Shown: piece by piece, positions 3,816-33,518 of the stretch
Layout of the letters: each line of letters starts with the position of its first letter
Position numbering within the stretch: the stretch's first letter is position 1
Source: Acidobacteriota bacterium
GTDB lineage: Bacteria; Acidobacteriota; UBA4820; DSQY01
DNA length: 33,518 bases
Direction: 5' to 3'
Assembly (NCBI GenBank): GCA_040758175.1
Contig: JBFLVU010000001.1
Location: forward strand, 6,789 to 40,306
The notes under the pieces: model-generated
Told to the model about the DNA's origin: nothing
Seen by the model: only the letters and a program-made list of their open reading frames with translations
The model's database searches: none
Made by a program: the position numbers and the translations under genes

Positions 3816-3828
3816 GGGCGTCCCCTCC

Positions 3829-4260: not shown

Positions 4261-4305
4261 GCCAGCACCTCCCCGGCCTTCTCGTGTCAGACCACCGATT
4301 CCGGA

Positions 4306-6231
<1,926 letters not shown>

Positions 6232-6285
6232 GAACGCACTCCTCCTTCGAACGGTGCCAGGGCTCGTCAGCCTGAGCCAGGTCCT

Positions 6286-6314
6286 AAGATAATACTTGAG
6301 CGAATAATTGTCAA
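6286..6314 (-). promoter_or_regulatory. sigma70 promoter of the dnaK operon
   Basis: Minus strand TTGACA (6314-6309), 17-nt spacer, TATCTT (6291-6286); AT-rich patch ~55 nt upstream of the dnaK ATG. Confidence 0.8.
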
Positions 6315-6315
6315 G
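6295..6315. promoter_or_regulatory. HAIR-like HspR operator
   Basis: CTTGAGC-N7-TGTCAAG versus HAIR consensus CTTGAGT-N7-ACTCAAG; overlaps the -35 element and spacer of the dnaK promoter; hspR is in the operon. Confidence 0.75.
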
Positions 6316-6390
6316 TTTTCTGACTTTGGCGACGTGGGCATTTCGCCGGGAGCGCCGACCTGATACCCTCGACTCTCTGTCGGGGGAGGC

Positions 6391-15290: not shown

Positions 15291-15590
15291 TCAGGCGTCG
15301 TGGAGGGCGGCCTCCACGGGGAGGACCCACGCGTGGGTGGACTCGCAGAGCTTGCGGTCCTCCTTGCACTGCCGGATGCAGTTCATCAGGCCGGAGACCG
15401 CCTCGTCGGGGACAACCGAGACGACCACCACCGAGGCTCCCGGATGAACTCGGTCCCCCCGCTTCATGCCGGACGCCCCCGCCCCCCACACCTGGGGAAT
15501 CACCGTGTATCCGGTCACGCCCTTCTCCCTCAGGGTGTTCATGCAATGCGGCTCGTACTCGCTGTCCGTCACCAAGAACAACATCTTCAT
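15291..15590 (-). CDS. P-II-like, transporter-associated small protein
   Basis: MKMLFLVT...GVTGYTVIPQVWGAGASG...HPG...AWVLPVE has the PII-superfamily pattern; GAGGT RBS; last gene of the RND operon. Confidence 0.75.
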   Translation of the reverse strand: MKMLFLVTDSEYEPHCMNTLREKGVTGYTVIPQVWGAGASGMKRGDRVHPGASVVVVSVVPDEAVSGLMNCIRQCKEDRKLCESTHAWVLPVEAALHDA

Positions 15591-15612
15591 CTCTATACCT
15601 CGAGTCTTCTTG

Positions 15613-15684
15613 ACCACAGAGGACACTGAGCGCACAGAGGACCTATCGAATCGACAACTCTGTGCTCTCTGTGACTTTTGTGGT
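15613..15684. repeat. Palindromic element of 3x9-nt arms
   Basis: Left arm ACCACAGAG-GACACTGAG-CGCACAGAG (15613-15639), 18-nt spacer, right arm CTCTGTGCT-CTCTGTGAC-TTTTGTGGT (15658-15684). Confidence 0.85.
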
Positions 15685-15695
15685 GAATCCCATGG

Positions 15696-18600
15696 CTATT
15701 CCTCTTCCTCCAGGGCCTCGTCCTCCACGGGCGGCTTGTCGCCGTAAAAGAGGACGTACAGGATGGGGATGGCGCCCCAGGACAACAGGGTGGACGCCAC
15801 CTCGCCGGCCATGAGGGCAACGGCCATGCCCTGGAAGATGGGGTCCGCCAGCATGACCGAGGAGCCCACGACGACGGCGAGGGCCGTCAGAAGCATGGGC
15901 CGGAAACGCACGGCCCCTCCCTCCACCACGGCATCCTTGAGGGGCATCCCCTGGCGCATCTTCATTTCGGCGAAGTCGATGACGAGGATGGAATTGCGCA
16001 CGACGATGCCCGCCAGGGCGATGAAGCCGATCATGGAGGTGGCGGTGAAGAAGACGCCCGCGGCGGCGTGGGCGGGGAGGATCCCCACCAGGGAGAGGGG
16101 GATGGGGGCCATGATGGCCAGAGGCGTCAGGTAGCTCCTGAACCATCCCACCACCAGGATGTACATGAACACGAGAACCAGGGCGAAGGCGATGCCCAGG
16201 TCCCGGAAGACCTCGTAGGTGATCTGCCACTCCCCGTCCCATTTCACGGCGTAGCGATCCGACAGGAGCGGGACCTCCGTGTAGAAACGCTTCAGGCCCG
16301 TGGTCCCGTCGGGCAGGCGGAGGCGGTCGAGGGCGCGGTTGAGCTTGAACATGGCGTACACGGGGCTCTCCTCCACCCCCGCCACATCCCCCACGACGTA
16401 CACCACGCGCCGGAGGTTCTTGTGGTAAATCTCCTGAGGGATCTCGGACCTTTGGACGTCCACCACCTGCGAGAGGGGAATGAGGGTCCCCTGGCGATTT
16501 TGGATCTGCAGGGAGGCGAGGGCCGCCAGGTCGAAGCGGGACTCGCGGGGCATGCGAACGGTGATCGGGACCGTTTCGCGCTCTCGCGGCATGTGGGCCA
16601 TCGTCACGGTGGCGCCCCGGACGGCCATGGAGACCGCCAGGCTCACCTCCGCGACGGAGAGTCCGGCGGCGGAAGCCTTCCTGGGATCCACCACCAGATC
16701 GACCTGCTCCTGGGGGTCCACGGCGTAGATATCGGTGTCCACGACACCCGCCGTTTCCCGGAAAACCCTCAACACGTCGCGCCCCGCCTGGAATTGTCCG
16801 CCAAGGTCGGGCCCGTAGATCTCCGCCACGAGGGTCGAAAGCACCGGGGGCCCCGGCGGGATCTCCACGACCTTCAAGGCCACACCGAGTTCCTTCGCGA
16901 GGGGTTCCAGGAGGGAGCGGGCCTCCTTCGCCAGGTCGTGGCTCTGGCGGCCCCGGGCGTGCTTCGGAAGGAGGTTGACCTGGATGTCCGCGGCGTGGGG
17001 AATCTGGCGGAGGTAGTAGTGGCGGACCAAGCCGTTGAAGGTGATGGGCCCCGAGGTCCCGGCGTAAATCTGGTAGTCCGTCACCTCGGGCATTTCCATG
17101 AGCTTCTGAGCCATGGCTTGCGCCGCCTGCAGGCTCTTCTCCAGGGAGGCCCCTTCGGGCAGGTCCAGGACGACCTGGAACTCGCTCTTGTTGTCGAAGG
17201 GGAGCATCTTGACCTTGGTGACCTTGAAGGCCACCAGGGCTACGGAGAGGGCCAGGAGGAGGACGTTCCCGGCCAGGAAGAGGAGCCCCATCCTCCGGTC
17301 GTGCGTCAATCGGGTCATCACCCGGCGGTACAGGCCCAGGAGGCGGCCCATGATCCTGCCCTCGTGTTCCTCCCCCGCGTGGACCTTGTCCTTCAGGAGC
17401 TTGAAGGCGGCCCACGGGGAGACCATGAAAGCCACCACGAGGGAGATGATCATGGCCGCCGAGGCGCCCACGGGGATGGGGCGCATGTAGGGTCCCATCA
17501 TTCCCCTCACGAAGGCCATGGGGAGAATGGCGGCGATGACGGTGAAGGTGGCCAGGATCGTGGGGTTGCCCACCTCGTCCACGGCCTCGATGGCTTTGCG
17601 CGTGAGGCTCCGGCCGTCCTTCATGGTGAAGTGCCGGTAGATGTTCTCCACAACGACGATGGCGTCGTCCACCAGGATGCCGATGGAGAAGATGAGGGCG
17701 AATAGCGTCACGCGGTTGAGGGTGTATCCGCCCAGGTAGTAGATCAGGAGGGTGAAGGCCAGGGTGACGGGCACCGCGATGCCGACGACGAGCGATTCTC
17801 GGAATCCCAGCATGAAAGCGATAAGCAGGACGACGGAGACGGTGGCCAGGAGCAGGTGCTTGATGAGTTCGTCGGACTTCTCCCCCGCGCTTTCCCCGTA
17901 GTCCCGGGTCACGGTCACCGAAACATCTCTCGGAATAAGCCTTCCTTGGAGAGACTCCACCTTGTGGAGGAGGACCTCGTTGAGGGCCGTGGCGTTCACG
18001 CCGGGCCTCTTCGCCACCGTCAGCGTGACGGCCGGATACTGGCCGCGCGCTTCGGGCGGGATTCCCCGGGCCGAGGCCCCGGGGCCCACGCCGAAGAGGA
18101 CGTACTGGCCGGGGAGGGGTGGACCGTCCTCGAGGGCGGCCACGTCCCCCAAGTAGACCGGACGACCCTGGTGGAAACCTACCAGGACGGCGGCGGCGTC
18201 CCGGGAGTCCCGGATCCAGGAGCCCACTTCCAGCCGGACCTCGCGATTGTCCTTCACGAGGGAGCCTGCGGGCAGGCGAGAGTTGAAGGCCTGCAGGCTC
18301 TGGGCGACGGCCAGGGGGTTCACGCCGTGGGCCGCCATGCGGACCGGGTCGAGGACGACTCGAAGTTCCCGCTTTTGGGCCCCGAGGATCTCCACCGCGG
18401 CGACGTCGGGAACGGCGCGGAGCTCGATCTCGAGCTCCTGGGCCACACGGGTGAGGGCGTAGGCGTCGTACCCCTTTCCCCAGAGGGTGAGTCCGAGAAC
18501 CGGCACGTCGTCGATGGACTTGAGCTTGATGAGGGGGAACAGGGCGCCGGGCGGCATCTGGTTCAGGTTCCCGGCGACCTTGTCGTAAATCCGAAGGAGG

Positions 18601-18929
18601 GCCGTTTCCTCCGCCGTGTTGACCTCGAAGCGGACGATGATCATGCCCATGTTGGCGCTGGAAGTGGAGTACACGTACTCCACGTTGGGGATCTCCCACA
18701 GGAGCTTCTCCAGGGGGGTGACGACGCGCTGCTCCACCTCCTCGGGGGAGGCCCCAGGCAGGGGCACGAAAATGTCCACCATGGGGACTTTGATTTGGGG
18801 CTCCTCCTCCCTCGGCGTCATGAGGACCGCGAAGGTGCCGAGGAGGAGGGATGTGACCACGAAGAGAAGGGTCAGCTTGTTCCTGAGAAAGTAGTGGGCG
18901 ATGGACCCCGACGGACCCACTCGGATCAT
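15696..18929 (-). CDS. RND efflux transporter permease (AcrB/CusA superfamily)
   Basis: TPREEEPQI...PGASPEEVE, TM4 IGILVDDAIVVVENI, TM10 GIVVRNSILVIDF, RFRPMLLT; 1077 aa. Confidence 0.95.
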   Translation of the reverse strand: MIRVGPSGSIAHYFLRNKLTLLFVVTSLLLGTFAVLMTPREEEPQIKVPMVDIFVPLPGASPEEVEQRVVTPLEKLLWEIPNVEYVYSTSSANMGMIIVRFEVNTAEETALLRIYDKVAGNLNQMPPGALFPLIKLKSIDDVPVLGLTLWGKGYDAYALTRVAQELEIELRAVPDVAAVEILGAQKRELRVVLDPVRMAAHGVNPLAVAQSLQAFNSRLPAGSLVKDNREVRLEVGSWIRDSRDAAAVLVGFHQGRPVYLGDVAALEDGPPLPGQYVLFGVGPGASARGIPPEARGQYPAVTLTVAKRPGVNATALNEVLLHKVESLQGRLIPRDVSVTVTRDYGESAGEKSDELIKHLLLATVSVVLLIAFMLGFRESLVVGIAVPVTLAFTLLIYYLGGYTLNRVTLFALIFSIGILVDDAIVVVENIYRHFTMKDGRSLTRKAIEAVDEVGNPTILATFTVIAAILPMAFVRGMMGPYMRPIPVGASAAMIISLVVAFMVSPWAAFKLLKDKVHAGEEHEGRIMGRLLGLYRRVMTRLTHDRRMGLLFLAGNVLLLALSVALVAFKVTKVKMLPFDNKSEFQVVLDLPEGASLEKSLQAAQAMAQKLMEMPEVTDYQIYAGTSGPITFNGLVRHYYLRQIPHAADIQVNLLPKHARGRQSHDLAKEARSLLEPLAKELGVALKVVEIPPGPPVLSTLVAEIYGPDLGGQFQAGRDVLRVFRETAGVVDTDIYAVDPQEQVDLVVDPRKASAAGLSVAEVSLAVSMAVRGATVTMAHMPRERETVPITVRMPRESRFDLAALASLQIQNRQGTLIPLSQVVDVQRSEIPQEIYHKNLRRVVYVVGDVAGVEESPVYAMFKLNRALDRLRLPDGTTGLKRFYTEVPLLSDRYAVKWDGEWQITYEVFRDLGIAFALVLVFMYILVVGWFRSYLTPLAIMAPIPLSLVGILPAHAAAGVFFTATSMIGFIALAGIVVRNSILVIDFAEMKMRQGMPLKDAVVEGGAVRFRPMLLTALAVVVGSSVMLADPIFQGMAVALMAGEVASTLLSWGAIPILYVLFYGDKPPVEDEALEEEE

Positions 18930-19987
18930 GGCGCCACCTCAATCGGCGTGCCATCCTGCAGTCCGGCGGGGACGGGCGCGATCACCCGCTCCCCGGCGGA
19001 GAGGCCGCTCAGGACCTGGGCGATCCCTCCCTCCCTCCGGCCCACCTGGATCCAGCGGAGGCGCGCGAGGCCTTGGTCGACCACGAAGACGCCGTCCATC
19101 TGCCCCTGGGTCAAGACCGCCTCTTCGGGGACGGCGAGCGCCTTCTCGGCGAGGGCATCGAAGCGAATGCGGGCGAACTGTCCGGGCCGCAAGTTCGTGC
19201 CCGGGGGAACGGCCACCTTGACGGAAGAGGTCCGGCTCAGGGGGTCGGCGGCCGGGACGACGGAAGCGAGGGTCCCGCGGAGGGGCTCAGGGATTCCGTC
19301 CACGCGAACGTCGGCGGCCTGGCCCGGGGCGAGGAGCCGGGAGCGCTCCTCGGGGACGGCCACGCCGATTTCCAGGTCCGAGGGATCTTCGAGGGTGAGG
19401 AGCGGCGCGCCAGGGTAGGCGAGGTTCCCGGGGTCCAGCCACCTCCGGGTGACAATCCCGTCGGACGGCGCCGTGATTCGGCCGTAGGAGAGGAGGGTTT
19501 CCGCCATCTTCACGTTGGCCTCGGCCTGGGCCTTCTGCGCGCGGACCGCCGCCGCCCCCGCCTGCGCCTGTTCCAACTGGTGCCGGGTCACGGCCTTTTG
19601 GTCGAACAGGTTCTGAAATCGCTCGAGGTCCCTGTCGGCGTTGTTCGAGGCGATTTCAGCAGCCTGAAGGCCGGCCCGGGCCTGATCGTAGGCGCTCTGG
19701 GCCTCGGCGGCATCCACGTCCACGAGGGGCTGCCCCCTCCGGACGGATTGGCCCTCCTCCACGTACAAGCGGAGTACGCGGCCCATCATCTTTGTGGAGA
19801 TTGTGACGGCACGGCGGCTCTTCACGCTTCCCGTATAGGCCTCCCCGGCGGGCATGAGCTTCGGCGCGGCCTCGGCCACCTTCACGGTCACGGCCGGCCC
19901 GGGGTCCCGTTTCTCCACCTTATGCCCGCACGCCATCAGGCCTGCAGCGGCCGCCACCGAAATCCAGATCCTCGCGTTCTTCATCAT
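18926..19987 (-). CDS. RND periplasmic adaptor (MFP), lipoprotein
   Basis: Lipobox GLMAC; lipoyl halves GRVLRLYVEEGQSVRRGQPL and ITAPSDGIV; overlaps RND start by ATGA; an in-frame ATG at 20041 is an alternative start. Confidence 0.9.
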   Translation of the reverse strand: MMKNARIWISVAAAAGLMACGHKVEKRDPGPAVTVKVAEAAPKLMPAGEAYTGSVKSRRAVTISTKMMGRVLRLYVEEGQSVRRGQPLVDVDAAEAQSAYDQARAGLQAAEIASNNADRDLERFQNLFDQKAVTRHQLEQAQAGAAAVRAQKAQAEANVKMAETLLSYGRITAPSDGIVTRRWLDPGNLAYPGAPLLTLEDPSDLEIGVAVPEERSRLLAPGQAADVRVDGIPEPLRGTLASVVPAADPLSRTSSVKVAVPPGTNLRPGQFARIRFDALAEKALAVPEEAVLTQGQMDGVFVVDQGLARLRWIQVGRREGGIAQVLSGLSAGERVIAPVPAGLQDGTPIEVAP

Positions 19988-20040
19988 CGAGACACCCCTG
20001 TCTTTCCCGTCTTTTCCGCCACGCCTGTTCCCGGGTTCCA

Positions 20041-21402
20041 TCACTTGCCCATGGCCCACTGCAGGCGGGCGCGGGCGACGCGCTGGTCGTGGACGGCCTG
20101 GGCCCTCTGGAGGGCCGATGCCGTGAGGGCCGTGTCCGCGTCCAGAAGGTCCGTGATGGACGCCATGCCCTCCTTGTAACGCAGTTCCACGATGCGCAGG
20201 TTCTCTCGGGCTTGGGCTTCCGACTCGGAGGAAACGGCCACCCTCTCGGAGGCCGCCTCCAACCGGAGCCAGGCCTCCTGCACGTCCACCCGGACCTTTC
20301 TCTTCAGGTCCAGGAGGGCCTGCTGGGCCTGAAACTCCCTGGCGCGGGCCGTGAGAAGGCGCCCGGAGCGGGCCCCTCCGTCAAAGAGGGGCAGGCGCAG
20401 CTGGACCCCCACCATCCAGTTGTCCCCGCGTCCGGACCAGCCTTCCGTGTCCTGCTCGTAGGCCGCCATGGCGCCCACCTGCGGAAGGTAGTCGGCCCGG
20501 GCCATCTTTACTCCCTCGGACGCTTGTCGGGATTGGATTTCGGCGGCTCGAAGGTCCTTCCGGCCGGCGATGGCCTCCTGGATGGCCTCCTCCAGGAGGG
20601 GACCCGCCTCTCCCGGCCCCGACAGCTCACCAGCGGGCTCGACCTCCCCGTCGTATCCCAGGGCGTACGCGAGGTAAGCCCGCGCCACCCGCGCGTCCGC
20701 CTCTCGGGCGGCCTTTTGCTGGCGCATGTCCGAAACGAACACCCTCATCCTGAGGAGGTCCGAGTCCAGGATCAGCCCCTGCCCGTGCATGGCCTCCACC
20801 TGCCGGAGGTGGGCCTCCGCCGTCCCGACGGTCTCGGCCATGACCTCCGCCGCCCGCGCCGCCAAGAGGCTCCCGAGGAAGGCCTCGGTGACCGCCTTCG
20901 TCAGGCTGGACTCGGCGAAAGCGCTCTCGCTGGAGGCCGCCTCCACGCCCAGGAGGGTGGCCCGGTAGGCCGCCTTGAGCTTGCCCCCCGCGAAAAGCGG
21001 AACGGTGAGTTCGGCCCGGCTTTGGTAGTTGTTCAGAGGGGCCGGGCGGTTCAGGTTCGGGAGAGCGAAATCCATCATCCCGAACCTTTCCTGGGTGAGC
21101 TTGCCCATGAACACGTAAACCGGGTTCGTCGTCCGGCTGAAGTTCTCGGTGAAGGTCAGGTCCGGCCAGAAAAGGGAGGTCGCTTCCCTGTGCTGGCCGC
21201 GTCGAGCCTCCACCTCCTGCCTCGCGGCGCGGACCATGGGATTGTTCTCCCGGGCGCGGGCAACCGCCTCCTCCAGAGTCAGGCGGAGGGCGTCGGGAGA
21301 GGCCGTCTGCTGGGTCCACGCGGAGGCGGGCGCGAGGAGCCAGAGCAGGGCTCCGGAGAGGGCCCAGGCGGCCCGGGATCTCGTGCGTTTTCTTCCGTTC
21401 AT
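20041..21402 (-). CDS. TolC-family outer-membrane efflux protein
   Basis: Signal peptide; LTLEEAVARARENNP, LTVPLFAGG, ADYLPQV, LPLFDGG, RYKEGMASITDLLDA; ATG at 21402 with GGGGG RBS. Confidence 0.92.
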   Translation of the reverse strand: MNGRKRTRSRAAWALSGALLWLLAPASAWTQQTASPDALRLTLEEAVARARENNPMVRAARQEVEARRGQHREATSLFWPDLTFTENFSRTTNPVYVFMGKLTQERFGMMDFALPNLNRPAPLNNYQSRAELTVPLFAGGKLKAAYRATLLGVEAASSESAFAESSLTKAVTEAFLGSLLAARAAEVMAETVGTAEAHLRQVEAMHGQGLILDSDLLRMRVFVSDMRQQKAAREADARVARAYLAYALGYDGEVEPAGELSGPGEAGPLLEEAIQEAIAGRKDLRAAEIQSRQASEGVKMARADYLPQVGAMAAYEQDTEGWSGRGDNWMVGVQLRLPLFDGGARSGRLLTARAREFQAQQALLDLKRKVRVDVQEAWLRLEAASERVAVSSESEAQARENLRIVELRYKEGMASITDLLDADTALTASALQRAQAVHDQRVARARLQWAMGK

Positions 21403-21447
21403 GATTCCCCCTGAAAAAACGAGGACCCGACCCATTGCGTTTGGCTC

Positions 21448-21456
21448 ATTCTAGCA
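21448..21456 (-). promoter_or_regulatory. Putative extended -10 promoter for the tolC-MFP-RND operon
   Basis: TG-C-TAGAAT on the minus strand ~45 nt upstream of tolC. Confidence 0.45.
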
Positions 21457-21563
21457 CCGAACCGTCGGGCTCCCGCGGGTCCGGAACCTAGAGATGCACG
21501 CCCCGGCGGGCGGTAACGGAATGATCCGCCTTTAGACTGGACGCGGGGAAGCGGGCCGTGCCC

Positions 21564-21592
21564 TTGACAGGCGGGGCTTCGTTTCGTAAAAT
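21564..21592 (+). promoter_or_regulatory. Strong sigma70 promoter for the tRNA pair
   Basis: TTGACA, 17-nt spacer, TAAAAT. Confidence 0.88.
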
Positions 21593-21607
21593 TTACTGCT
21601 GTTCCGC

Positions 21608-21683
21608 TGGGGAGTAGTTCAACTGGTGGAACGCCTGGCTCTGGACCAGGATGTTGGGGGTTCGAGTCCTCCCTCCCCAGCCA
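21608..21683 (+). tRNA. tRNA-Gln(CTG)
   Basis: Acceptor TGGGGAG/CTCCCCA, anticodon arm CCTGG-CTCTGGA-CCAGG, T-loop TTCGAGT, encoded CCA. Confidence 0.96.
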
Positions 21684-21688
21684 GACAT

Positions 21689-21763
21689 GGCCCGTTCGTT
21701 CAGCGGTTAGGACACCGGCCTCTCACGTCGGTAACACGGGTTCGATTCCCGTACGGGCTACCA
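21689..21763 (+). tRNA. tRNA-Glu(CTC)
   Basis: Acceptor GGCCCGT/ACGGGCT, anticodon arm CCGGC-CTCTCAC-GTCGG, T-loop TTCGATT, encoded CCA. Confidence 0.96.
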
Positions 21764-21771
21764 GCAAATCG

Positions 21772-21800
21772 AAGGCGGAGGCCGAGCCTCCGCCTTTTTT
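21772..21800 (+). terminator. Rho-independent terminator after the tRNAs
   Basis: AAGGCGGAGGC-CGA-GCCTCCGCCTT followed by TTTT. Confidence 0.9.
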
Positions 21801-21937
21801 GCTGGGGGCCTCGGAGGAAGCGCGCCCAGCCGGGTCCCTTGTCAGGCGCCCCCTGCGGGGGCATCATCAAAGGCTGTGCGGCCGCTTCTCCGGGCCGTGC
21901 CTGCGCCGGGGAACCGTTCGAAGGAAAGGGAATCGGG

Positions 21938-23776: not shown

Positions 23777-23810
23777 GCCGGGGTCCGGAAGGTCGGGAAG
23801 GGGCCTCCAT

Positions 23811-25991: not shown

Positions 25992-26143
25992 CGAGGTGGC
26001 GAAGGGGCCATGGGGGAAATGCCCCAAGCGCGTCCATCCCCTTCCGTATCCCCCAAGGCAGTGCAACTGCCGCCGCGTGGGGACCGGCGTCCGGGGGCGG
26101 GCCGGGGGCCCTCGAAGGCATTCCCGGTCCGCCCCCTGGAACC

Positions 26144-26172
26144 TTGACACCACGGCCCCTCTCGACTATATT
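26144..26172 (+). promoter_or_regulatory. sigma70 promoter of the nuo operon
   Basis: TTGACA, 17-nt spacer, TATATT, ~46 nt upstream of nuoA. Confidence 0.82.
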
Positions 26173-26218
26173 CAGCCCCTTTAGGCCCGCGCCCGCCCCG
26201 CCCAAGGGAGGATCGTAC

Positions 26219-26571
26219 ATGTCGGCTTACCTTCCCGTAGGGATCTTCCTGGCCCTCGCCCTTGCCATTGTGCCGCTCACCATGGTTCTGGGCCGGTTCA
26301 TCCGCCCCCGGCGCTACGATCCCGTCAAGGTGGAGCCCTACGAATGCGGCATCGAGGTGAAGGAGGCCCCGGCGGGCAAGATCTCCGTCCACTTCTACCT
26401 GGTGGCGGTGGTTTTCCTTGTCTTCGACGTGGAAACCATCTTCCTCCTGCCCTGGGCCGTGGCCTTTGACAAGCTGGGCCTTTTCGGGGTGATCGAGGTG
26501 TTCGTCTTTCTCGCCCTGCTCATCGCGGCGTACGTCTACGCGTGGCTGAAGGGGGCGTTGAGGTGGGAAGA

Positions 26572-26575
<4 letters not shown>
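26219..26575 (+). CDS. nuoA: NADH-quinone oxidoreductase subunit A
   Basis: [10 protein letters not shown]...PYECG...[14 protein letters not shown]...KGALRWEE; GGAGG RBS; C-terminal part of track ORF 24065..26575. Confidence 0.95.
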
Positions 26576-27189
<614 letters not shown>

Positions 27190-27198
27190 GGGAGCCAT

Positions 27199-27915
27199 AT
27201 GACTGACGAGATCAAGGCGCCCGGACCGCCGGTTCCCCCGCCTCAGGCGGCGGGTGGAGAGGCCGCGCCGGCGGAGAAGCCCGCGGCGGCCAAGCCCGCG
27301 ACACCGCCGGCCCCCAAGCCTCCCGCCGGTCCCAAGAAGTGGGAGCCCACGGGAGACGCGGTCCCAAATGCTCCGGCGGAGGCCCTCGCCGAGAGGTTCG
27401 GAGAATCCGTCCGGGGCGCCAAGAGCCCCTGCGGTGAATCCGCGGTCCTCGTGGACAAGGCGGCCCTCGTCCCGGTCCTTGCCTTTCTTAGGGACGATCC
27501 CCGTTGCGGCATGAACTACCTGAGCGACCTGACGGGCGCCCACTACCCCATCAACGACAAGAAGTTCGAGGTGGTCTACCACCTGTACTCCATGGAAAAG
27601 GGACACTCCCTCCGGGTGAAGGTCCAGCTCGACGACGGCGAGCCCTGCCCCAGCGCCACCGGGGTCTGGCCCGGAGCGGACTGGATGGAGCGGGAAGCCC
27701 ACGACATGCTCGGGATCGTCTTCGAGGGTCACCCCGGCCTCAAGGTCATCCTCCTGCCCGACGACTTCGAGGGCCATCCCCTGAGGAAGGAGTTCCCACT
27801 CGGTGGCGCCCAGGAGGAGATGATCCGTGCCAACCGGTACGGGAAGCCCGTCTACCTCCCGGACGACGTGGAGGAGGCGCGAAAGATCGTCGAGGAGCAG
27901 CGCCATGGACGGTGA
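27199..27915 (+). CDS. nuoC: NADH-quinone oxidoreductase subunit C with Pro/Ala-rich N-terminal extension
   Basis: FEVVYHLYS, ADWMEREAHDMLGIVFEGHP, GHPLRKEFPL. Confidence 0.94.
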   Translation: MTDEIKAPGPPVPPPQAAGGEAAPAEKPAAAKPATPPAPKPPAGPKKWEPTGDAVPNAPAEALAERFGESVRGAKSPCGESAVLVDKAALVPVLAFLRDDPRCGMNYLSDLTGAHYPINDKKFEVVYHLYSMEKGHSLRVKVQLDDGEPCPSATGVWPGADWMEREAHDMLGIVFEGHPGLKVILLPDDFEGHPLRKEFPLGGAQEEMIRANRYGKPVYLPDDVEEARKIVEEQRHGR

Positions 27916-29047
27916 ACACATGCACCCCGAGGGCACCGGGCTCCGCGGCGCTTTGGAAACCCACGAGGTGGAGCTGAACCTCGGGCCGCAGCACCCGGCC
28001 ACCCACGGCGTCTACCGGGCCCTGGTACGCCTGGACGGCGAGCGGGTGGTGGGAATGGAATCCATCATCGGATACCTCCACCGCGGAATCGAGAAGTGGT
28101 GCGAGTCCCGGACCTGGACGCAGGCCACACCCGTTTTCGATCGGCTGGACTACGTGGGGGCGGTCCTCAACTGCCACGGGTACGTGGGGGCCGTGGAGAA
28201 GCTGCTCAACCTGGAGGTCCCCAAGAAGGCGCAGTACATCCGCGTGGTTTTGGACGAACTCCAGCGCATCGCGAACCACCTGCTCTGGCTGGGAACCCAC
28301 GCCCTCGACGTGGGCGCCCAGTCCATGCTCTTTTACGGCATCCGGGAGCGGGAGGCCATCCTGGACCTATTCGAGGCGATGCTGGGCCAACGCCTCTTGC
28401 CCAACGCCTACCCGATCGGCGGCGTCCGGTTCGATTTTCCGAAGGGCTGGGAGGCGGTGTGCCGCCGGTTCCTCGAAGAGATGCCCAAGAAGGTCGATGA
28501 CTACGAGACCCTTCTCACCGGAAACCGCATCTGGGTTCAGCGCACCAAGGGGGTGGGCGTGATCGCGGCGGACCAGGCCATCGCCCTGTCCTTGTCGGGC
28601 CCCACCCTCCGGGGCTCCGGAGTGAACTTCGACGTGCGCAAGGCCTTGCCCTATTCGAGCTACCCGGACTTCGACTTCGAGGTGCCTCTGGGTCAGAACG
28701 GGGACGTCTTCGACCGGTACCTCTGCCGCGTTCGGGAGATGCGCCAGAGCCTGCGCATCATCCGCCAGGCGCTGGACGGCATGCCCGAGGGCGACCTGAA
28801 GGGCAAGGTGGGCCGCATCATTCGCCCGCCCATGGGTGAGGCCTACTTCACGGTGGAGGCGGCCAAGGGCCAGCTGGGCTACTACATCGTAAGCGAGGGG
28901 GCCGAGAAGCCCTGGCGGGTCCACGTGCGGGCCCCCTCCTTCATCAACCTTCAGGGCATCGAGACCATGTGCCGCGGCGCGCTCATCGCCGACGTGGTGG
29001 CCATCATCGGCTCCCTCGACATCGTCCTCGGTGAGGTGGACAGGTGA
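27905..29047 (+). CDS. nuoD: NADH-quinone oxidoreductase subunit D
   Basis: LNLGPQHPATHGV, GYLHRGIEK, RLDY, IIGSLDIVLGEVDR; no NiFe CxxC motifs. Confidence 0.96.
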   Translation: MDGEHMHPEGTGLRGALETHEVELNLGPQHPATHGVYRALVRLDGERVVGMESIIGYLHRGIEKWCESRTWTQATPVFDRLDYVGAVLNCHGYVGAVEKLLNLEVPKKAQYIRVVLDELQRIANHLLWLGTHALDVGAQSMLFYGIREREAILDLFEAMLGQRLLPNAYPIGGVRFDFPKGWEAVCRRFLEEMPKKVDDYETLLTGNRIWVQRTKGVGVIAADQAIALSLSGPTLRGSGVNFDVRKALPYSSYPDFDFEVPLGQNGDVFDRYLCRVREMRQSLRIIRQALDGMPEGDLKGKVGRIIRPPMGEAYFTVEAAKGQLGYYIVSEGAEKPWRVHVRAPSFINLQGIETMCRGALIADVVAIIGSLDIVLGEVDR

Positions 29048-29084
29048 AGACCATGGGACAACGCGAGACGGGGAAGGCGAATCC

Positions 29085-30137
29085 ATGAACCTCGATTGGC
29101 TGACGGCCCACGTGGGAATGCCCCTGGTCAAGATCCTCATCCTCCTTGTGCCCGTCTTCACGGTGGTGGCCTACATCGTCTGGTTCGAGCGCCGGGTCCT
29201 GGCCTTCTTCCAGTCCCGCCTCGGTCCGAACCGGGTGGGCCCGCTCGGCCTCCTGCAGCCCGTGGCGGACGGTCTGAAACTCCTCCTGAAGGAAGACATC
29301 GTCCCCGCCAACGCGAGGCCCTTTCTGTTCAAGATGGCCCCCGTCTTTTCCTTCTTCCCGGCCCTGGTGGGCTTCGCGGTGGTTTCCTGGGCCCTTCCCT
29401 GGGTCACGCCCTCCGGAAAGACCCACGGATTCGTCATCGGCGACGTGAACCTGGGGATCCTCCTCATCCTTTCTCTCTCCTCCCTCGGGATCTTCGGGAT
29501 CATCCTGGGAGGCTGGTCCTCGGGGTCCAAGTACCCCCTCTTCGGGAGCCTGAGGTCCGCCAGCCAGATGCTGGCCTACGAAGTTCCCCTGACCCTCTCG
29601 GTCATATCCGTCATTCTGCTGGCGGGCTCCTTCCGCCTAAGCGACATCGTGGCGGCCCAGCAGTCCCTGGGATGGTACTTCCTCTTCCCGGGGCTCGTGG
29701 CTTTCGGGGTCTACATCGTGGCGGCCGTGGCCGAGACCAACCGGACGCCCTTTGATCTGCCCGAGGGCGAGAGCGAGATCATCGGCTTCCACACCGAGTA
29801 TTCGGGCATGCGATTCGCGTTCTATTTCGTGGCGGAATACGCCAACGTGGTCCTCACGAGCGTGGTGGCCACGGCGCTTTTCCTGGGCGGGTACGACATC
29901 CCCTTCGTCAAGGACGCCGCGCTCTACGCGACGCACCCCCGGCTCGTGAGCGCGCTGGGGGTCTGTTCCTTCGCCGCAAAGGGGGCGCTCTTCGCCTACT
30001 TCTTCGTGTGGATCCGCGCCACGTGGCCACGGTACCGGTACGACCAGCTCCTGAGAATCGGCTGGCTGGTCCTCTTCCCCATCGCCATGGCCAACTTGGT
30101 CCTCGTGGCTTTGTTCAAGCTCTGGCTCCTGAGGTGA
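29085..30137 (+). CDS. nuoH: NADH-quinone oxidoreductase subunit H
   Basis: RLGPNRVGPLGLLQPVADGLKLLLKE, AETNRTPFDLPEGESE, PRYRYDQL. Confidence 0.96.
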   Translation: MNLDWLTAHVGMPLVKILILLVPVFTVVAYIVWFERRVLAFFQSRLGPNRVGPLGLLQPVADGLKLLLKEDIVPANARPFLFKMAPVFSFFPALVGFAVVSWALPWVTPSGKTHGFVIGDVNLGILLILSLSSLGIFGIILGGWSSGSKYPLFGSLRSASQMLAYEVPLTLSVISVILLAGSFRLSDIVAAQQSLGWYFLFPGLVAFGVYIVAAVAETNRTPFDLPEGESEIIGFHTEYSGMRFAFYFVAEYANVVLTSVVATALFLGGYDIPFVKDAALYATHPRLVSALGVCSFAAKGALFAYFFVWIRATWPRYRYDQLLRIGWLVLFPIAMANLVLVALFKLWLLR

Positions 30138-30141
30138 CCGC

Positions 30142-30618
30142 ATGAGCGCCGCCCTCCGGTTCTTGAAGATGGTGACCTTCTGGGAACTCCTGAAGGGCAT
30201 GGGGGTCACCCACAAGTACATGGTGAAGCCGAAGGTCACCGAGCTCTACCCCGATGTCCGGCCGGTGCTCCCCTACCGGACCAAGGGCCGGCTCCACGTG
30301 GAGATCGAGACGTGCATCTCCTGCCGCATGTGCGAGAAGGCCTGCCCCGAGGGGTGCATCAAGGTCTACCCTCCGCCCAAGGAGGTCTTCAAGACCGACA
30401 AGCGCCCGGCGGAGTTCTACCTGAACCAGGAGCACTGCCTGCACTGCGGGCTCTGCGTGGACCCCTGCCCCACGGGATCCATCCACCATTCTCACGAGTT
30501 CGAACTGGTGGTTTTTGACCACAGGGAACTGCTCTTCGATCGTGAAACGCTGCCCTACGATTTGGATCAGACCCGGTATCGGTGGAACTGGATCGAGAAC
30601 GTTCCGGTGAAGAAGTGA
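30142..30618 (+). CDS. nuoI: NADH-quinone oxidoreductase subunit I (2x[4Fe-4S])
   Basis: CISCRMCEKACP and CLHCGLCVDPCP. Confidence 0.95.
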   Translation: MSAALRFLKMVTFWELLKGMGVTHKYMVKPKVTELYPDVRPVLPYRTKGRLHVEIETCISCRMCEKACPEGCIKVYPPPKEVFKTDKRPAEFYLNQEHCLHCGLCVDPCPTGSIHHSHEFELVVFDHRELLFDRETLPYDLDQTRYRWNWIENVPVKK

Positions 30619-30624
30619 TGGATC

Positions 30625-30713
30625 CTCGCGGGGGAGCGAGGGGCGCTGAAGAAGAAAGAGGTACTGGACTTTCTTGAGGTGATTTCTCCGCGGTCTCCGC
30701 GTCTCCGCGGTGA
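30625..30713. repeat. Degenerate 9-nt-period palindromic element between nuoI and nuoJ
   Basis: Right arm CTCCGCGGT-CTCCGCGT-CTCCGCGGT-GA (30686-30713), same geometry as 15658-15686; decayed left arm at ~30625-30653. Confidence 0.65.
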
Positions 30714-30737
30714 GAAGGGCATTTGGGAGGAGAGGGG

Positions 30738-31274
30738 ATGACGGTCTTTTCGATCCTGCTCGCGGCGGTCATCGTGGCGTGTGCGCTCGGAGTGGTCTTC
30801 GCGCGCAGTCCCATCACGGCCGCCGTCTCGCTCCTGGTGGGCTTCCTCGGCCTCGCGGTCCTCTACCTGGCCCTCCATGCCGAATTCGTGGCGGCGGTCC
30901 AGGTGCTGGTGTACGCTGGCGGCATCATGGTCCTGTACCTTTTCGGTATCATGCTGGTGGACAACCAGGTGCTCCGGCTGACGCGCCAGGTTCACTTCCA
31001 GGCCTGGCCGGCCTTCGTCCTCGTCCTGGCGCTCTTCCTCTGGATGGGCCACCGTCTCTACCACAGCGAATACGCCGCGCTCCCGGGGGGGCGTCCCGCG
31101 GCCACGGCGACCGCCGATGCGGAGTCGTCCGAATCACCCTCCCCGGCGGCGGACAACACGCGTAGGATCGCCAAGGTGCTTTACGGCGATTTCCTCTACC
31201 CCTTCGAAGCGGCCTCCATCCTTCTCCTCGTGGCGGTGGTCGGCGGCGTCTTCCTGGCGAAGAAGGAGGTCTGA
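30738..31274 (+). CDS. nuoJ: NADH-quinone oxidoreductase subunit J
   Basis: AEFVAAVQVLVYAGGIMVLYLFGIML, YPFEAASILLLVAVVG; GGAGG RBS. Confidence 0.94.
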   Translation: MTVFSILLAAVIVACALGVVFARSPITAAVSLLVGFLGLAVLYLALHAEFVAAVQVLVYAGGIMVLYLFGIMLVDNQVLRLTRQVHFQAWPAFVLVLALFLWMGHRLYHSEYAALPGGRPAATATADAESSESPSPAADNTRRIAKVLYGDFLYPFEAASILLLVAVVGGVFLAKKEV

Positions 31275-31275
31275 C

Positions 31276-31575
31276 GTGTCCACCCCGGCGCTGGTCCTGG
31301 TGGGTTTTCTCCTCTTCTGTCTCGGGATCTTCGGGGTCCTCGCGAGACGGAACTTCATCGTCGTCCTCCTGTCCATCGAGTTGATCTTCGCCGGGGCAGG
31401 CCTGAATTTCGTGGCTTTCTCCGACCTCTGGCAGAACCTGACGGGACAGGTCTTCACGGTCTTCCTCATCGCCGTGGCCGCCGGGGAAGCGGCCGTAGGC
31501 CTCGGACTCCTCATCGCCCTCTACCGGGTGAAACACACCGCCAACGTGGACGAAGCCAGGGAGTTGAAGGGATGA
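31276..31575 (+). CDS. nuoK: NADH-quinone oxidoreductase subunit K
   Basis: RRNFIVVLLSIEL, GQVFTVFLIAVAAGEAAVGL; GTG start with AAGGAGG RBS. Confidence 0.94.
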   Translation: MSTPALVLVGFLLFCLGIFGVLARRNFIVVLLSIELIFAGAGLNFVAFSDLWQNLTGQVFTVFLIAVAAGEAAVGLGLLIALYRVKHTANVDEARELKG

Positions 31576-31608
31576 ATTCCGGATTTGGAGCTTCGTATTT
31601 GGAATGTG
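31574..31608. repeat. Degenerate AT-rich heptamer tandem repeat at the nuoK/nuoL junction
   Basis: GAATTCC-GGATTTG-GAGCTTC-GTATTTG-GAATGTG. Confidence 0.55.
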
Positions 31609-31663
31609 CCGGTCCCCACGCCCTCGCCGGCTCCCTGAGAGGATTCCGGGCGGGAGGTGACGC

Positions 31664-33518
31664 ATGACCGCCGTGCAACTTCTCTGGCTGATACCCGTGC
31701 TGCCGGCGCTTGGGGCGCTGGTGAACGGCGCCTTCGGGTGGAAGTGGGAGCACGGGAACCGGAAGGTGATTTCGGCGGTGGCGCTGTGCGCGACGGGGCT
31801 GGCGCTGGCGCTGGCGCTGTGGAACATCGCGGTGCTGTACGGGATGGACTTTGGGGCGCTGCCGGCGCTTCCGTCGAACGTGACGGCGGACGCGGCGCAC
31901 CGAAGCCTGAGCCTGCACCTGTGCGATTGGATCCCGGCGGGGACGTTCGTGACGGGCCTGGGGGCGCTGGGGTCGTTCCGGGTGGAGTGGCTGTTCGTGC
32001 TGGACCCGCTGTCGGCGGTGATGCTGTTCGTGGTGTGCTTCGTGGGGTTTCTGATCCACGTGTACAGCGTGGGCTACATGGCGCACGACGAGGGGTACTT
32101 CCGGTTTTTCGCCTACCTGAACCTGTTCATGGCGATGATGCTGACGCTGGTTCTGGGGGGGAACTACCTGGTGATGTTCATCGGGTGGGAGGGGGTGGGT
32201 CTGTGCTCCTACCTGCTGATCGGGTTCTACTACAAGAAGGACTGGTGCGCGGACGCGGGGAAGAAGGCGTTTCTGACGAACCGGATCGGAGACATGGGCT
32301 TCGCGGCGGGGCTGATGCTGATCCTGTACTGGTTCGGGACGCTGGACATGGACCGGGTGAACGCGCTGGCGGTGACGGGGTCGGTGCCGGGGTGGGTGCT
32401 GACGGCGGCGGGGATCCTGCTGTTCGTGGGGGCGACGGGGAAGAGCGCGCAGCTACCTCTGTACGTGTGGCTTCCGGACGCGATGGCGGGTCCGACGCCG
32501 GTGTCGGCGCTGATCCACGCGGCGACGATGGTGACGTCGGGTGTGTACCTGGTGGCGCGAAGCAACGGGATCTACAGCATGAGCCCGACGGCGCTGATGG
32601 TGGTGGCGGGGGTTGGGGCGGCGACGGCGCTGTTCGCGGCGACGATCGGGCTGGTGCAGAACGACATCAAGAAGGTGCTGGCGTACTCGACGGTGAGCCA
32701 GCTGGGGTACATGTTTCTGGGGGTGGGCGTGGGGGCGTCGGGGGCGGGGATCTTCCACCTGTACACGCACGCGTTTTTCAAGGCGCTGCTGTTCCTGGGG
32801 TCGGGGTCGGTGATCCACGCCATGAGCGGGGAGCAGGACATCCGGAAGATGGGGCAGTTGTGGGGCCGGATTCCGACGACGTACAAGACGTTCCTGGTGG
32901 GGTGCCTGGCCATCGCGGGGATCCCGGGGCTGTCGGGGTTTTTCAGCAAGGACGAGATCCTGTGGCAGGCCTTTTCGAGCGCGCACGGTCCGGGGCACTT
33001 CCCGGCCTCCTTCGCGAAGGCGCTGTGGATCGTGGGGGTGTGCGCGGCGGCGATGACGGCCTTCTACATGTTCCGGCTGCTGTACCTGACGTTCCACAAC
33101 AGCGACCGGGTGAGCCACGAGGCCGGCCACCACGTGCACGAGAGCCCGAGGACGATGACGGGGGTTCTGGCGGTGCTGGCGGTGGGCTCGGTGGTCGTCG
33201 GGTGGGTGGGCCTGCCGAAGATCTGGCTCTCCGGCCACGAGAACTTCTGGGAGCGGTGGCTCCACCCCATCCTGTACACGCCGCACGCGGCGGCGCACGG
33301 GGAAGCGGCGGTCCACAGCGCGGCGGCCGAGTGGGGGGCCATGGGCCTGAGCGTCCTGGTGGCCCTCCTAGGGATCACGGCCGCGACCCTGTGGTACCGG
33401 CGGGAGACGGGGACGCCCTCGAAGCTCGCCCTGGCCCTCAAGGCCCCCTACCGCCTCCTCCTCAACAAGTACTTCGTGGACGAGGTCTACTCCGCCGCCT
33501 TCATCCGTCCCCTGGTCA
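31664..33518 (+). CDS. nuoL: NADH-quinone oxidoreductase subunit L (3'-truncated by the window)
   Basis: Manual translation: MTAVQLLWLIP...IHVYSVGYM...FIGWEGVGLCSYLLIGF...KKAFLTNRIGD...GKSAQLPLYVWLPDAMAGPTPVSALIHAATMV...NDIKKVLAYSTVSQLGYM; GGAGG RBS. Confidence 0.96.
   Translation, partial: MTAVQLLWLIPVLPALGALVNGAFGWKWEHGNRKVISAVALCATGLALALALWNIAVLYGMDFGALPALPSNVTADAAHRSLSLHLCDWIPAGTFVTGLGALGSFRVEWLFVLDPLSAVMLFVVCFVGFLIHVYSVGYMAHDEGYFRFFAYLNLFMAMMLTLVLGGNYLVMFIGWEGVGLCSYLLIGFYYKKDWCADAGKKAFLTNRIGDMGFAAGLMLILYWFGTLDMDRVNALAVTGSVPGWVLTAAGILLFVGATGKSAQLPLYVWLPDAMAGPTPVSALIHAATMVTSGVYLVARSNGIYSMSPTALMVVAGVGAATALFAATIGLVQNDIKKVLAYSTVSQLGYMFLGVGVGASGAGIFHLYTHAFFKALLFLGSGSVIHAMSGEQDIRKMGQLWGRIPTTYKTFLVGCLAIAGIPGLSGFFSKDEILWQAFSSAHGPGHFPASFAKALWIVGVCAAAMTAFYMFRLLYLTFHNSDRVSHEAGHHVHESPRTMTGVLAVLAVGSVVVGWVGLPKIWLSGHENFWERWLHPILYTPHAAAHGEAAVHSAAAEWGAMGLSVLVALLGITAATLWYRRETGTPSKLALALKAPYRLLLNKYFVDEVYSAAFIRPLV

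Follow-up and report, generated by a model that had tools for sequence, protein, structure and literature searches.

Intergenic elements built of inverted 7- to 9-nt arrays in operon spacers of an Acidobacteriota genome, and their probable relation to small gene cassettes

We analyzed a stretch of 33,518 nucleotides from an Acidobacteriota bacterium (GenBank assembly GCA_040758175.1, contig JBFLVU010000001.1, positions 6,789 to 40,306), here called the window, and in particular five spacers inside two of its operons, for which an initial annotation had proposed short-period repeats, translationally coupled small open reading frames (mini-ORFs), and a role as docking sites for gene cassettes. 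The window is part of contig C1 of an assembly of 2.85 Mb in 355 contigs with 67.9% G+C (G000 in the comparisons below), and the gene map assumed earlier was borne out by a Pfam search. On the minus strand, one host operon (15291..21435) encodes TolC (20041-21435), a membrane-fusion protein (MFP; 18926-19987), an RND pump (15696-18929), and a PII-like protein of the PG0541 family (15291-15590), which scored only 34 bits on Pfam P-II and 47.4 bits on the NCBIfam model of the PG0541 transporter-associated family (cut-off of 45). On the plus strand, the other host operon (26572..33517) has the order nuoB-C-D-H-I-J-K-L, where nuoE, nuoF, and nuoG do not lie between nuoD and nuoH. Its nuoD gene ends at 29047, nuoH spans 29085-30137, nuoI 30142-30618, and nuoJ 30738-31274, nuoK ends at 31575, and nuoL starts at 31664.

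Repeats and inverted arms in five operon spacers

Each spacer was tested separately for its longest exact direct repeat at a lag of 6-20 nt against 2000 shuffles. The spacer between the RND pump and the PII-like gene (RND/PII; 15591..15695, minus strand) holds an ORF-less hairpin element. Two copies of CACAGAGGAC (15615-15624 and 15633-15642), matched by only 2 of the 2000 shuffles, and two CTCTGTG units (15658-15664 and 15667-15673) form part of an imperfect inverted repeat, whose 30-nt arms (15610-15639 and 15658-15687) are 80% complementary and end in TTGACCAC (15610-15617) and GTGGTGAA (15680-15687). The RNA fold of this spacer reached a z score of -3.39, equaled by 2 of 200 shuffles, and the element has complementary terminal arms that could form a stem of at least 20 bp, a trait of an intervening sequence (IVS)-type cassette. 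The folds of the other four spacers were no better than those of shuffles (z of +0.27 to +1.0).

Comparison of 24 RND/PII loci showed that a nearly identical 105-nt CACAGAG element is common to the window and G003, and that other genomes of the same genus (G004, G002, and G001) have spacers of 36, 37, and 26 nt, respectively, without the element. A CACAGAG element of 115 nt is present in G012, which belongs to another genus, and further relatives have units of CACGGAG, CACCAAGG, CGCCAAGG or GGCGGTGAG. Across the relatives, these elements share the same ends and a spacing of about 18 nt to the next start codon, which suggests one old insertion with turnover of its units.

The spacer between nuoI and nuoJ (30619..30737, plus strand) contains three copies of TCTCCGCG(G), a repeat matched by 8 of the 2000 shuffles. 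These copies form a pyrimidine-rich arm (30685-30711, followed by GGTGAG) that was also scored at 47 by Tandem Repeats Finder (TRF), and a degenerate purine-rich arm lies upstream (about 30624-30646). The same spacer recurs in G003 and G004, and elsewhere among the relatives this junction holds other array elements or a short spacer. The lead motif GGGCATTTGGGAGG (30717-30730) stands just 5' of the nuoJ ribosome-binding site; at other places in the genome (C131, C308, C295, and C150), the same sequence usually leads into TTTGGGA arrays.

The remaining three spacers are weaker. Two copies of ATTTGGA in the nuoK/L spacer (31576..31663, plus strand) are marginal on their own (136/2000 shuffles) and belong to a decayed 7-nt periodic stretch at 31576-31610 that begins ATTCCGG ATTTGGA GCTTCGT ATTTGGA; at the same junction in G018 and G014, four GGAATTC units follow straight after the nuoK stop codon (loci L014 and L015). 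In the 53-nt tolC/MFP spacer (19988..20040, minus strand), only a purine-rich 9-mer occurs twice (421/2000 shuffles; TRF score of 31 at 20000-20018), and the 37-nt nuoD/H spacer (29048..29084, plus strand) has no repeat above chance (1656/2000 shuffles), so that neither of these two spacers contains a significant repeat by this test. Tandem repeats of low score are frequent in this G+C-rich window, where 30 TRF rows reach a score of at least 30, mostly in coding DNA; the five spacers hold just two of them (20000-20018 and 30685-30711). Thus, the initial claim that all five spacers contain 7- or 9-nt-period sequence stands for RND/PII and nuoI/J, is marginal for nuoK/L, and does not hold for tolC/MFP and nuoD/H.

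Spacer lengths at the same junctions vary strongly among relatives. In 29 nuo loci from 40 related genomes, the spacers ranged from -4 to 160 nt at D/H (28 loci), -4 to 240 nt at I/J (27 loci), -4 to 153 nt at J/K (26 loci), and 2 to 175 nt at K/L (15 loci), and the H/I spacer was constant at 3-7 nt across the order. The expanded spacers hold inverted arrays with many different units. For example, the 37-nt nuoD/H spacer of the window is shared with G001 and G002, and G003 and G004, which are of the same genus and have NuoI proteins that are 100% and 97% identical, respectively, carry inverted-array elements of 139-154 nt there. Likewise, inverted arrays are present at tolC/MFP in G024, G019, G011, and G022 among 21 loci. 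No RNA run was listed as containing the locus; DNA contigs of four metagenomes came from strains in which the D/H and I/J spacers differ from those of the window and K/L has gained 3 nt. At both nuo and RND/PII, then, an element is present in some genomes of a genus and absent from others. In outgroups of the same order, neighboring nuo genes mostly overlap or are separated by 0-7 nt (the D/H spacer is 41 nt in one of the three), and the tight junction is therefore probably the older state.

Arrays across the genome and the small genes between them

BLAST searches with the spacers found more CACAGAG/CTCCGCG copies in the genome, in which three tandem units are followed downstream by three complementary units (e.g., C140:3905-3977 and C100:52-208). 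A scan for exact 7-mers recurring at a period of 7-11 nt found 54 arrays. By a crude gene call that missed some genes (2535 genes; 89.6% of the genome coding and 10.5% non-coding), TRF arrays of period 7 were mostly non-coding (57 versus 11 coding), as were those of period 8 (39 versus 22). Arrays of period 9, taken as a class, were not enriched in non-coding DNA (16 versus 228). Six core types (GAGACG, TTTGGGA, GAGTAGG, GGGGACT, CGCGGAG, and CACAGAG) account for 126 arrays, 122 of them non-coding, compared to 2 in a block-shuffled genome; the two types found in the window (CACAGAG and CGCGGAG) contribute 12. The arrays fall into 79 clusters, 33 of which lie at contig ends, implying that arrays break the assembly.

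The arrays follow a strand rule. In 17 adjacent pairs within a spacer, a purine-rich array precedes a pyrimidine-rich one, and the reverse order did not occur; moreover, 20 of 26 sense purine-rich arrays lie nearer the upstream stop codon. Another 54 spacers hold a single array (29 of the "+" and 25 of the "-" pattern). This genome therefore has intergenic heptamer arrays in the published sense, with units of the 7-nt class, a non-coding bias, and a strand rule. The window's CACAGAG and CTCCGCG/CGCGGAG units contain no GGG tract, let alone four, and a quadruplex is not expected of them; GGG-bearing families occur elsewhere in the genome (GGGAGAC, GGGATTT, and GGGGACT).

The initial annotation had proposed that the elements target operons. 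The clusters lie in 32 same-strand, 7 convergent, and 7 divergent spacers, compared to 28.0, 5.6, and 12.5 expected from spacer length (p = 0.19) or 30.2, 6.0, and 9.9 expected from the count of spacers of at least 40 nt (p = 0.57). Thus, we conclude that the elements occupy any kind of intergenic spacer, without a preference for operons.

Two matches to PF05635, the IVS-like four-helix-bundle family, are present in this assembly, both outside the window, and both lie between inverted arrays. On C229, the upstream stop codon is followed by eight GAGACGN units, an intact gene of 132 aa (117 bits on TIGR02436), eight NCGTCTC units, and, 16 nt on, the next start codon; the fold of this cassette pairs the two arms (z of -5.31; 0/20 shuffles). 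The C168 copy is broken, being truncated and interrupted by an internal TAG, and stands between decayed GGGACT-type units and four copies of AGTCCCCT.

In the bacterial family, 23 of 25 genomes contain PF05635 (80 matches). We inspected 30 of these IVS loci, of which 27 were usable, together with a wider set from a species-representative genome collection (76 usable of the best 80 among 591 relatives, searched with a 6-protein alignment because an 18-protein alignment was too diverse). The wider set covers Acidobacteriota, Bacteroidota, Planctomycetota, Proteobacteria, candidate-phyla bacteria, Chloroflexota, Nitrospirota, Bacillota, and one archaeon. When the two flanks of each gene were compared with each other, the local alignment score exceeded the 99th percentile of 512 control genes at 21 of the 27 family loci and at 42 of the 76 loci from other phyla. 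Exact complementary stretches of at least 12 nt between the two 140-nt flanks were found at 14/27, 31/76, and 3/512 of the family, wider, and control loci, respectively. In the wider set, the period was mostly 7, and periodicity exceeded the 95th percentile of shuffles upstream of 54 genes, downstream of 51, and on both sides of 36. In many loci the array abuts the gene start (0-30 nt). Cross-locus duplex energy discriminated weakly (-89 versus -72 kcal), and a count of shared complementary 7-mers was dropped as a statistic since 52% of G000 genes of 80-200 aa reach three or more. The IVS protein family is weakly similar to Avd, a protein of diversity-generating retroelements (26 bits, below the cut-off of 80).

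A second small gene, GxxExxY (PF13366), is found in 16 of 29 genomes of the order. At 16 usable loci, flank complementarity exceeded the 99th percentile of the control in 7 and the 95th percentile in 9. The units of these arms are CACAGAG, CACCAAGG or CGCAGAG with ACCAC..GTGGT ends, which by eye are of the RND/PII and nuoI/J type. With the type defined as a unit of C(A/G)C-N-(A/G)AG at an 8- to 9-nt period between ACCAC..GTGGT(GA) ends, the RND/PII element (15610-15687) and the right arm of nuoI/J have such units, again judged by eye rather than by a formal model, and match the GxxExxY arms of loci L227, L229, L231, and L240 as well as the elements of relatives at the RND/PII junction. At least 8 of 18 GxxExxY loci, also by eye, directly precede one host gene that starts with ATGAACGTCTTCAAGTACGG (L224, L226, L228, L229, L233, L237, L240, and L243). 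A pattern search for the ortholog of this host gene in G000 gave no match, and the best protein match there was 49% identical. The initial annotation had linked similar repeats to the flanks of IVS-like and GxxExxY genes; this link holds for both PF05635 genes of the genome, for most of the family loci, and for 42/76 and 7/16 of the other-phyla IVS and GxxExxY loci, respectively.

Two sets of arms at IVS genes coincide with repeats described in other bacteria. GGGGACT(A) arms (L036-L038, L050, L051, and G000:C168:1196-1226) correspond to the GGGGA(C/T)T heptamer of Nostoc, and a Stenotrophomonas IVS locus (L139) has downstream (GATTCCC)n, the complement of the GGGAATC repeat of Xanthomonas.

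The junction that holds the C229 cassette provided a decay series of 15 loci. Gene and arms are intact in seven genomes (G000, G003, G006, G015, G022, G007, and G024), and the locus of G014 is ended by a contig end. Four copies are degraded: G002 lacks the 5' part of the gene and the left arm, G001 and G019 have internal deletions, and G010 has an insertion. Three loci have no IVS gene (G021, G018, and G013, the last with a tight junction). G019 aligns with G022 in its arms and ends but lacks about 280 nt of the ORF. Cassettes lose the gene by deletion and the arms remain, and the presence of intact, truncated, interrupted, and internally deleted cassettes at one orthologous junction bears out the word "decayed" in the initial annotation. 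An insert of about 145 nt divides the IVS gene of G010 (L210; C62, upstream of 53920) into parts that match PF05635 model positions 3-62 and 59-106; this insert has the look of another small element that inserted into the cassette. At a single junction, the arm unit varies by genus (e.g., GAGACG, GCGAGAC, GTGATGAGG, GTGAGTAG, and TAAGCTAG) and the outer flanks are kept. Across junctions, arm similarity weakly follows IVS protein identity (Spearman coefficient of 0.19, from non-independent pairs and an imperfect junction classifier).

No recombinase was tied to the arrays. The genome encodes four PF01797 (Y1_Tnp) proteins, and none of their genes adjoins an array, so that the link of repeats to a Y1 gene that defines REP/REPIN-RAYT systems is not seen here. 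One of these, a Y1 transposase-like gene (G000:C218:1554-2414, minus strand; 45.9 bits), has different flanking repeats of its own, two copies of AAAACCCTCATGGGGTC on one side and an inverted pair of CAATACAAGAC, and may be part of a separate REP-like system. Of the traits of miniature inverted-repeat transposable elements, we observed defined ends, multiple copies, and presence/absence, the last as a difference of the whole spacer; no target duplication was seen. A scan of ORFs of at least 55 aa that lie between arrays or in large gaps with arrays (62 of the 92 listed) found no new cargo, only ordinary genes missed by the crude caller (PALP, HD, DnaN, GT2, hexapeptide transferase, and fumarase) and one MazF/PemK-family gene (G000:C207:250-891, minus strand), which is flanked by two GAGACG arrays that point the same way and so do not form an inverted pair.

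Elsewhere in the window, an 871-aa ORF (3748-6363, plus strand) scored 535 bits on Pfam NAD-GH (PF10712). It runs antisense to dnaK (4306-6231, minus strand; 886 bits on HSP70) and is thus no real gene, only the shadow ORF of a G+C-rich one.

Mini-ORFs at the operon junctions

An ATG that overlaps the upstream stop codon or lies within 5 nt of it had been noted at all five junctions, and each is present. In RND/PII, the ATG stands 2 nt after the TAG stop codon and opens a mini-ORF of 16 codons (15643..15693, minus strand) that ends 52 nt before the PII-like gene and does not bridge the spacer. At tolC/MFP, the ATG (20041-20039, minus strand) overlaps the tolC stop codon as TGATG and is in frame with MFP, as had been stated; it may be an N-terminal extension of MFP. 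The nuoD/H mini-ORF (29053-29088, plus strand) starts 5 nt past the stop codon, has 11 codons, and ends in an ATGA on the nuoH start. In nuoI/J, a TGATG overlap on the nuoI stop codon opens a mini-ORF of 19 codons (30618..30677, plus strand) that ends 60 nt before nuoJ, and its ATG is lost in G003 (TGACGG). The nuoK/L mini-ORF of 31 codons (31572..31667, plus strand) overlaps both the nuoK stop codon and the nuoL start codon by ATGA, so that the ATGA endings claimed for nuoD/H and nuoK/L were both found. Both G003 and G004 preserve the nuoK/L frame, in G004 across a 3-nt indel, and the frame also survives in a metagenome strain with GGG inserted at 31636. Its peptide, however, is not conserved: a hand count of the differences of G003 from G000 gave 5 non-synonymous changes out of 6.

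We defined a bridging ORF by a start codon from -8 to +15 nt of the upstream stop codon, an open frame, and an end in ATGA. In the window, nuoK/L and nuoD/H have one, and nuoI/J and RND/PII do not. Among relatives, 32 nuo spacers of at least 60 nt have an ATGA start. The ATGA frame was free of stop codons in 21 of these, compared to 6 and 11 for the other two frames, and contained 16 stop codons in total, compared to 36 and 38. When the expanded nuo spacers were grouped by eye into 21 elements, bridging ORFs were found in 10 groups, compared to 1 and 2 in the control frames (Fisher p = 4e-4); by junction, they occurred in 4/5 groups at K/L, 2/3 at J/K, 2/5 at D/H, and 2/8 at I/J. In 12 RND/PII groups, the ATGA frame was open in 9 and the other frames in 5 and 1.

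The genome-wide counts and the makeup of these groups limit the case for coupling by mini-ORFs. The nuo groups are related to one another and only partly independent. The RND/PII groups replicated the result weakly, with bridging ORFs in 3/12 compared to 1 and 0, and they too are non-independent, as their common ends contain a TGA whose distance is constant. Of the 570 same-strand spacers of 30-150 nt, 81 (14.2%) have an ATG that overlaps the upstream stop codon or follows it within 5 nt, compared to 14.5% of shuffled spacers, so that no genome-wide enrichment was seen; the rate at convergent gene ends was 9.9%. "Coupled" endings occur in 35/570 spacers (6.1%) versus 4.8% in shuffles. Likewise, there was no frame bias before NTGA starts, where the three frames were open in 45, 44, and 39 of 63 spacers of 60-100 nt and in 39, 35, and 41 of 76 spacers of 101-200 nt. 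Translational coupling, as initially proposed, is thus favored by the bridging ORFs of the nuo groups and has no genome-wide signal. From these patterns, a relay by mini-ORFs is suggestive, and we regard it as possible rather than probable.

Origin of the elements and comparison with known systems

On balance, we favor the interpretation that the RND/PII and nuoI/J elements, and probably that of nuoK/L, are ORF-less copies of a hairpin-type intergenic element whose full-length forms are small gene cassettes. Such an element consists of a purine-rich array of about three tandem 7- to 9-nt units, a loop, and a complementary pyrimidine-rich array, with (T)TCACC..GGTGAA-like ends in the subtype of the window. 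Arms of the CACAGAG and CACCAAGG type carry GxxExxY genes (PD-(D/E)XK-like) in relatives, and those of the GAGACG, GGGGACT, and GAGTAGG types carry IVS-like genes (PF05635/TIGR02436). In the operon transcript, the arms could pair into a stem of about 20-30 bp, which by analogy with the 23S rRNA IVS of Coxiella would likely be a site of RNase III processing or of mRNA stability. Three units of 7-9 nt amount to 21-27 bp, about two turns of double-stranded RNA and the usual minimal substrate of RNase III, for which the genome has a gene (C256; 98.5 bits). Where operon genes are tightly coupled, as in nuo, the surviving versions may tend to be those with a small ORF from the upstream stop codon to the ATGA of the next gene, on which ribosomes would cross the insert and re-initiate.

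Several results weigh against this interpretation. No cargo gene was found at any of the five junctions in relatives (21-29 loci each; largest spacer of 279 nt), and PF13366 has no match in this assembly. What links the elements of the window to cassettes is therefore their architecture and unit type alone. In addition, the nuoI/J fold was not above that of shuffles (z of +0.39), and in 13 of the 17 adjacent pairs the two arrays belong to different core types. IVS arms had no better duplex energies in the sense than in the antisense direction (sense better in 16/27; p = 0.83), and thus give no sign of selection at the level of RNA rather than DNA. Together with an array order that is symmetric regardless of the direction of neighboring genes, this result implies that a palindrome acting at the DNA level fits as well as an RNA stem.

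The alternative that survives best is that replication slippage generated the arrays locally as simple repeats, with no mobility and no cassette ancestry, and that the small genes are there by coincidence. The published GGGAATC and GGGGA(C/T)T arrays, with a similar bias and strand rule and, in the available text, no link to mobile elements (PMC4692102), are consistent with slippage, as are the 54 single-array spacers and the difference of units between lineages at one junction with constant flanks, which fits turnover in place. However, complementary arms that bracket two specific gene families far above the 512 control genes, conserved ACCAC..GTGGT ends around variable units, and whole-spacer presence and absence among genomes of one genus weigh against slippage, and the weak tracking of IVS protein subtype by arm type, albeit among non-independent pairs, also runs counter to it. 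We consider slippage unlikely.

The full model of the initial annotation, in which the spacers are empty docking sites of operon-targeting cassettes built to preserve translational coupling, is less likely again. Different cassette types occur at one junction in different genera, GxxExxY cassettes recur ahead of one host gene, and bridging ORFs are enriched at nuo junctions, as this model would have it. Yet same-strand spacers are not enriched over baseline, coupling frequencies genome-wide equal those of shuffles, no recombinase is linked to the arrays (0/4 Y1_Tnp genes adjoin one), and the TAG within GAGTAGG and GGGGACTAG units means that those arms block read-through. The same junctions in relatives lack cargo, which argues against docking sites in particular. 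The outcomes that the initial annotation had itself named as counting against it were largely what we found: no cargo at these sites and, genome-wide, a coupling frequency equal to that of shuffled controls. Its observation is partly confirmed and its interpretation partly supported.

It is very improbable that the five spacers are ordinary and that their repeats and ATG codons are selectively noted coincidences. The insignificant repeats at tolC/MFP and nuoD/H, the marginal one at nuoK/L, the many low-scoring tandem repeats of the window, and an ATG-at-stop rate equal to that of shuffles would suit chance, but RND/PII and nuoI/J are significant alone and match multi-copy families elsewhere in the genome, which refutes chance for these two; an ATG at 5/5 junctions has a nominal p of 6e-5 at the 14.2% background, by a criterion set post hoc. 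Equally improbable is an array of binding sites for a multimeric nucleic-acid-binding protein that regulates neighboring genes, such as a pentameric four-helix-bundle protein, because the abutment of arrays on IVS gene starts, the likeness to Avd, and the IVS homopentamer seen in a crystal (cited in the available text of PMC4990558) are set against at least six unit types for two IVS genes here, one of them broken, against units that differ among close orthologous cassettes, and against GxxExxY cargo in the same architecture.

The data show that these small genes lie between complementary tandem arrays in many phyla and that ORF-less arms derive from them. Two loose ends, the intergenic heptamer repeats and the very common IVS and GxxExxY families of unknown function, could share one testable explanation. 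For annotation, this architecture would explain why spacers of conserved operons (nuo and RND pumps) vary by up to 240 nt among close relatives and why assemblies break at arrays (33/79 clusters). If it is borne out, the signal of relay ORFs would reveal how coupled genes of an operon can tolerate an insert between them. More speculatively, PF05635 and PF13366 genes may form a structure-defined cassette system, in which they would move between inverted 7- to 9-nt arrays and be exchanged at favored housekeeping-operon junctions by a mechanism that depends on hairpins, for which the PD-(D/E)XK-like cargo is a candidate nuclease; ORF-less arms, including the heptamer repeats of cyanobacteria, xanthomonads, and Beggiatoaceae, would be its footprints, and the relay ORF would let inserts survive in coupled operons. 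We hold this extended scheme to be a tentative and rather doubtful proposal.

Parts of this architecture resemble known systems. Correia/NEMIS elements of Neisseria, REP/BIME, and ERIC are short inverted-repeat spacer elements that are co-transcribed with the operon and present or absent between strains, and the hairpin of Correia elements is processed by RNase III. The elements described here are likewise short inverted-repeat elements in spacers with strain-variable presence; in contrast, their arms are tandem arrays whose unit varies by copy, and they showed no target duplication and no link to a Y1 transposase. Integron cassettes (attC) are small promoterless genes bounded by imperfect inverted repeats whose structure is conserved above their sequence. 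As with integrons, different cassettes can fill one place, but here no integrase or recombinase was found with the arrays, arms stand on both sides of the gene, and the cassettes are scattered singly in housekeeping operons and not lined up in an array. Overlapping stop and start codons (ATGA and TGATG) mark translational coupling, and the nuoD/H and nuoK/L mini-ORFs end in such an ATGA on the next start codon. In a departure from textbook coupling, the ribosome would cross an insert on a relay ORF (11-57 codons), whose peptide is not conserved.

Our literature search found no paper stating a general link of IVS proteins or GxxExxY proteins to repeats, and the comments of the TIGR02436 and GxxExxY models may already mention repeats. 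The architecture is known piecemeal, and we did not find the whole described. Among the literature found, heptamers are noted only in the available text on the 23S rRNA IVS of Coxiella, where an S23p ORF is preceded by two or three tandem GACAGAT heptamers before its start codon and the terminal repeats form a 28-bp stem cut by RNase III (PMC4990558). The cassettes analyzed here share with the IVS of Coxiella and Leptospira the same ORF family between stem-forming inverted repeats, heptamers upstream of the ORF, and decay of the ORF between strains, as far as that text describes them (PMC4990558). They differ in lying between protein genes in mRNA operons, in arms that are tandem units throughout, in the absence of an ORF from most copies, and in a second cargo family (GxxExxY) with the same build; cutting by RNase III would be expected here by inference from structure. 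The five spacers of the window (37-119 nt) contain no PF05635/TIGR02436 ORF, in line with the ORF-less copies.

The closest likeness of the arms is to the published heptamer repeats. In their available texts, Rehm et al. describe GGGAATC arrays in Xanthomonas and GGGGA(C/T)T arrays in Nostoc, with an intergenic bias and a strand rule, leave the function open, and make no link to mobile elements (PMC4692102), and MacGregor describes TAACTGA arrays in Beggiatoaceae, cyanobacteria, and Bacteroidetes (PMC4679880). These repeats agree with ours in having units of about 7 nt, a nearly complete restriction to non-coding DNA, and a variable copy number, with GGGGACT identical. They also agree in strand: the G-rich strand is the coding one just past a stop codon and the non-coding one just before a start codon. 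The accessible parts of these papers report no link to small genes, whereas the arrays studied here are complementary pairs that bracket PF05635 and PF13366 genes. The shared units hint that the published heptamer repeats may themselves be the arms of cassettes.

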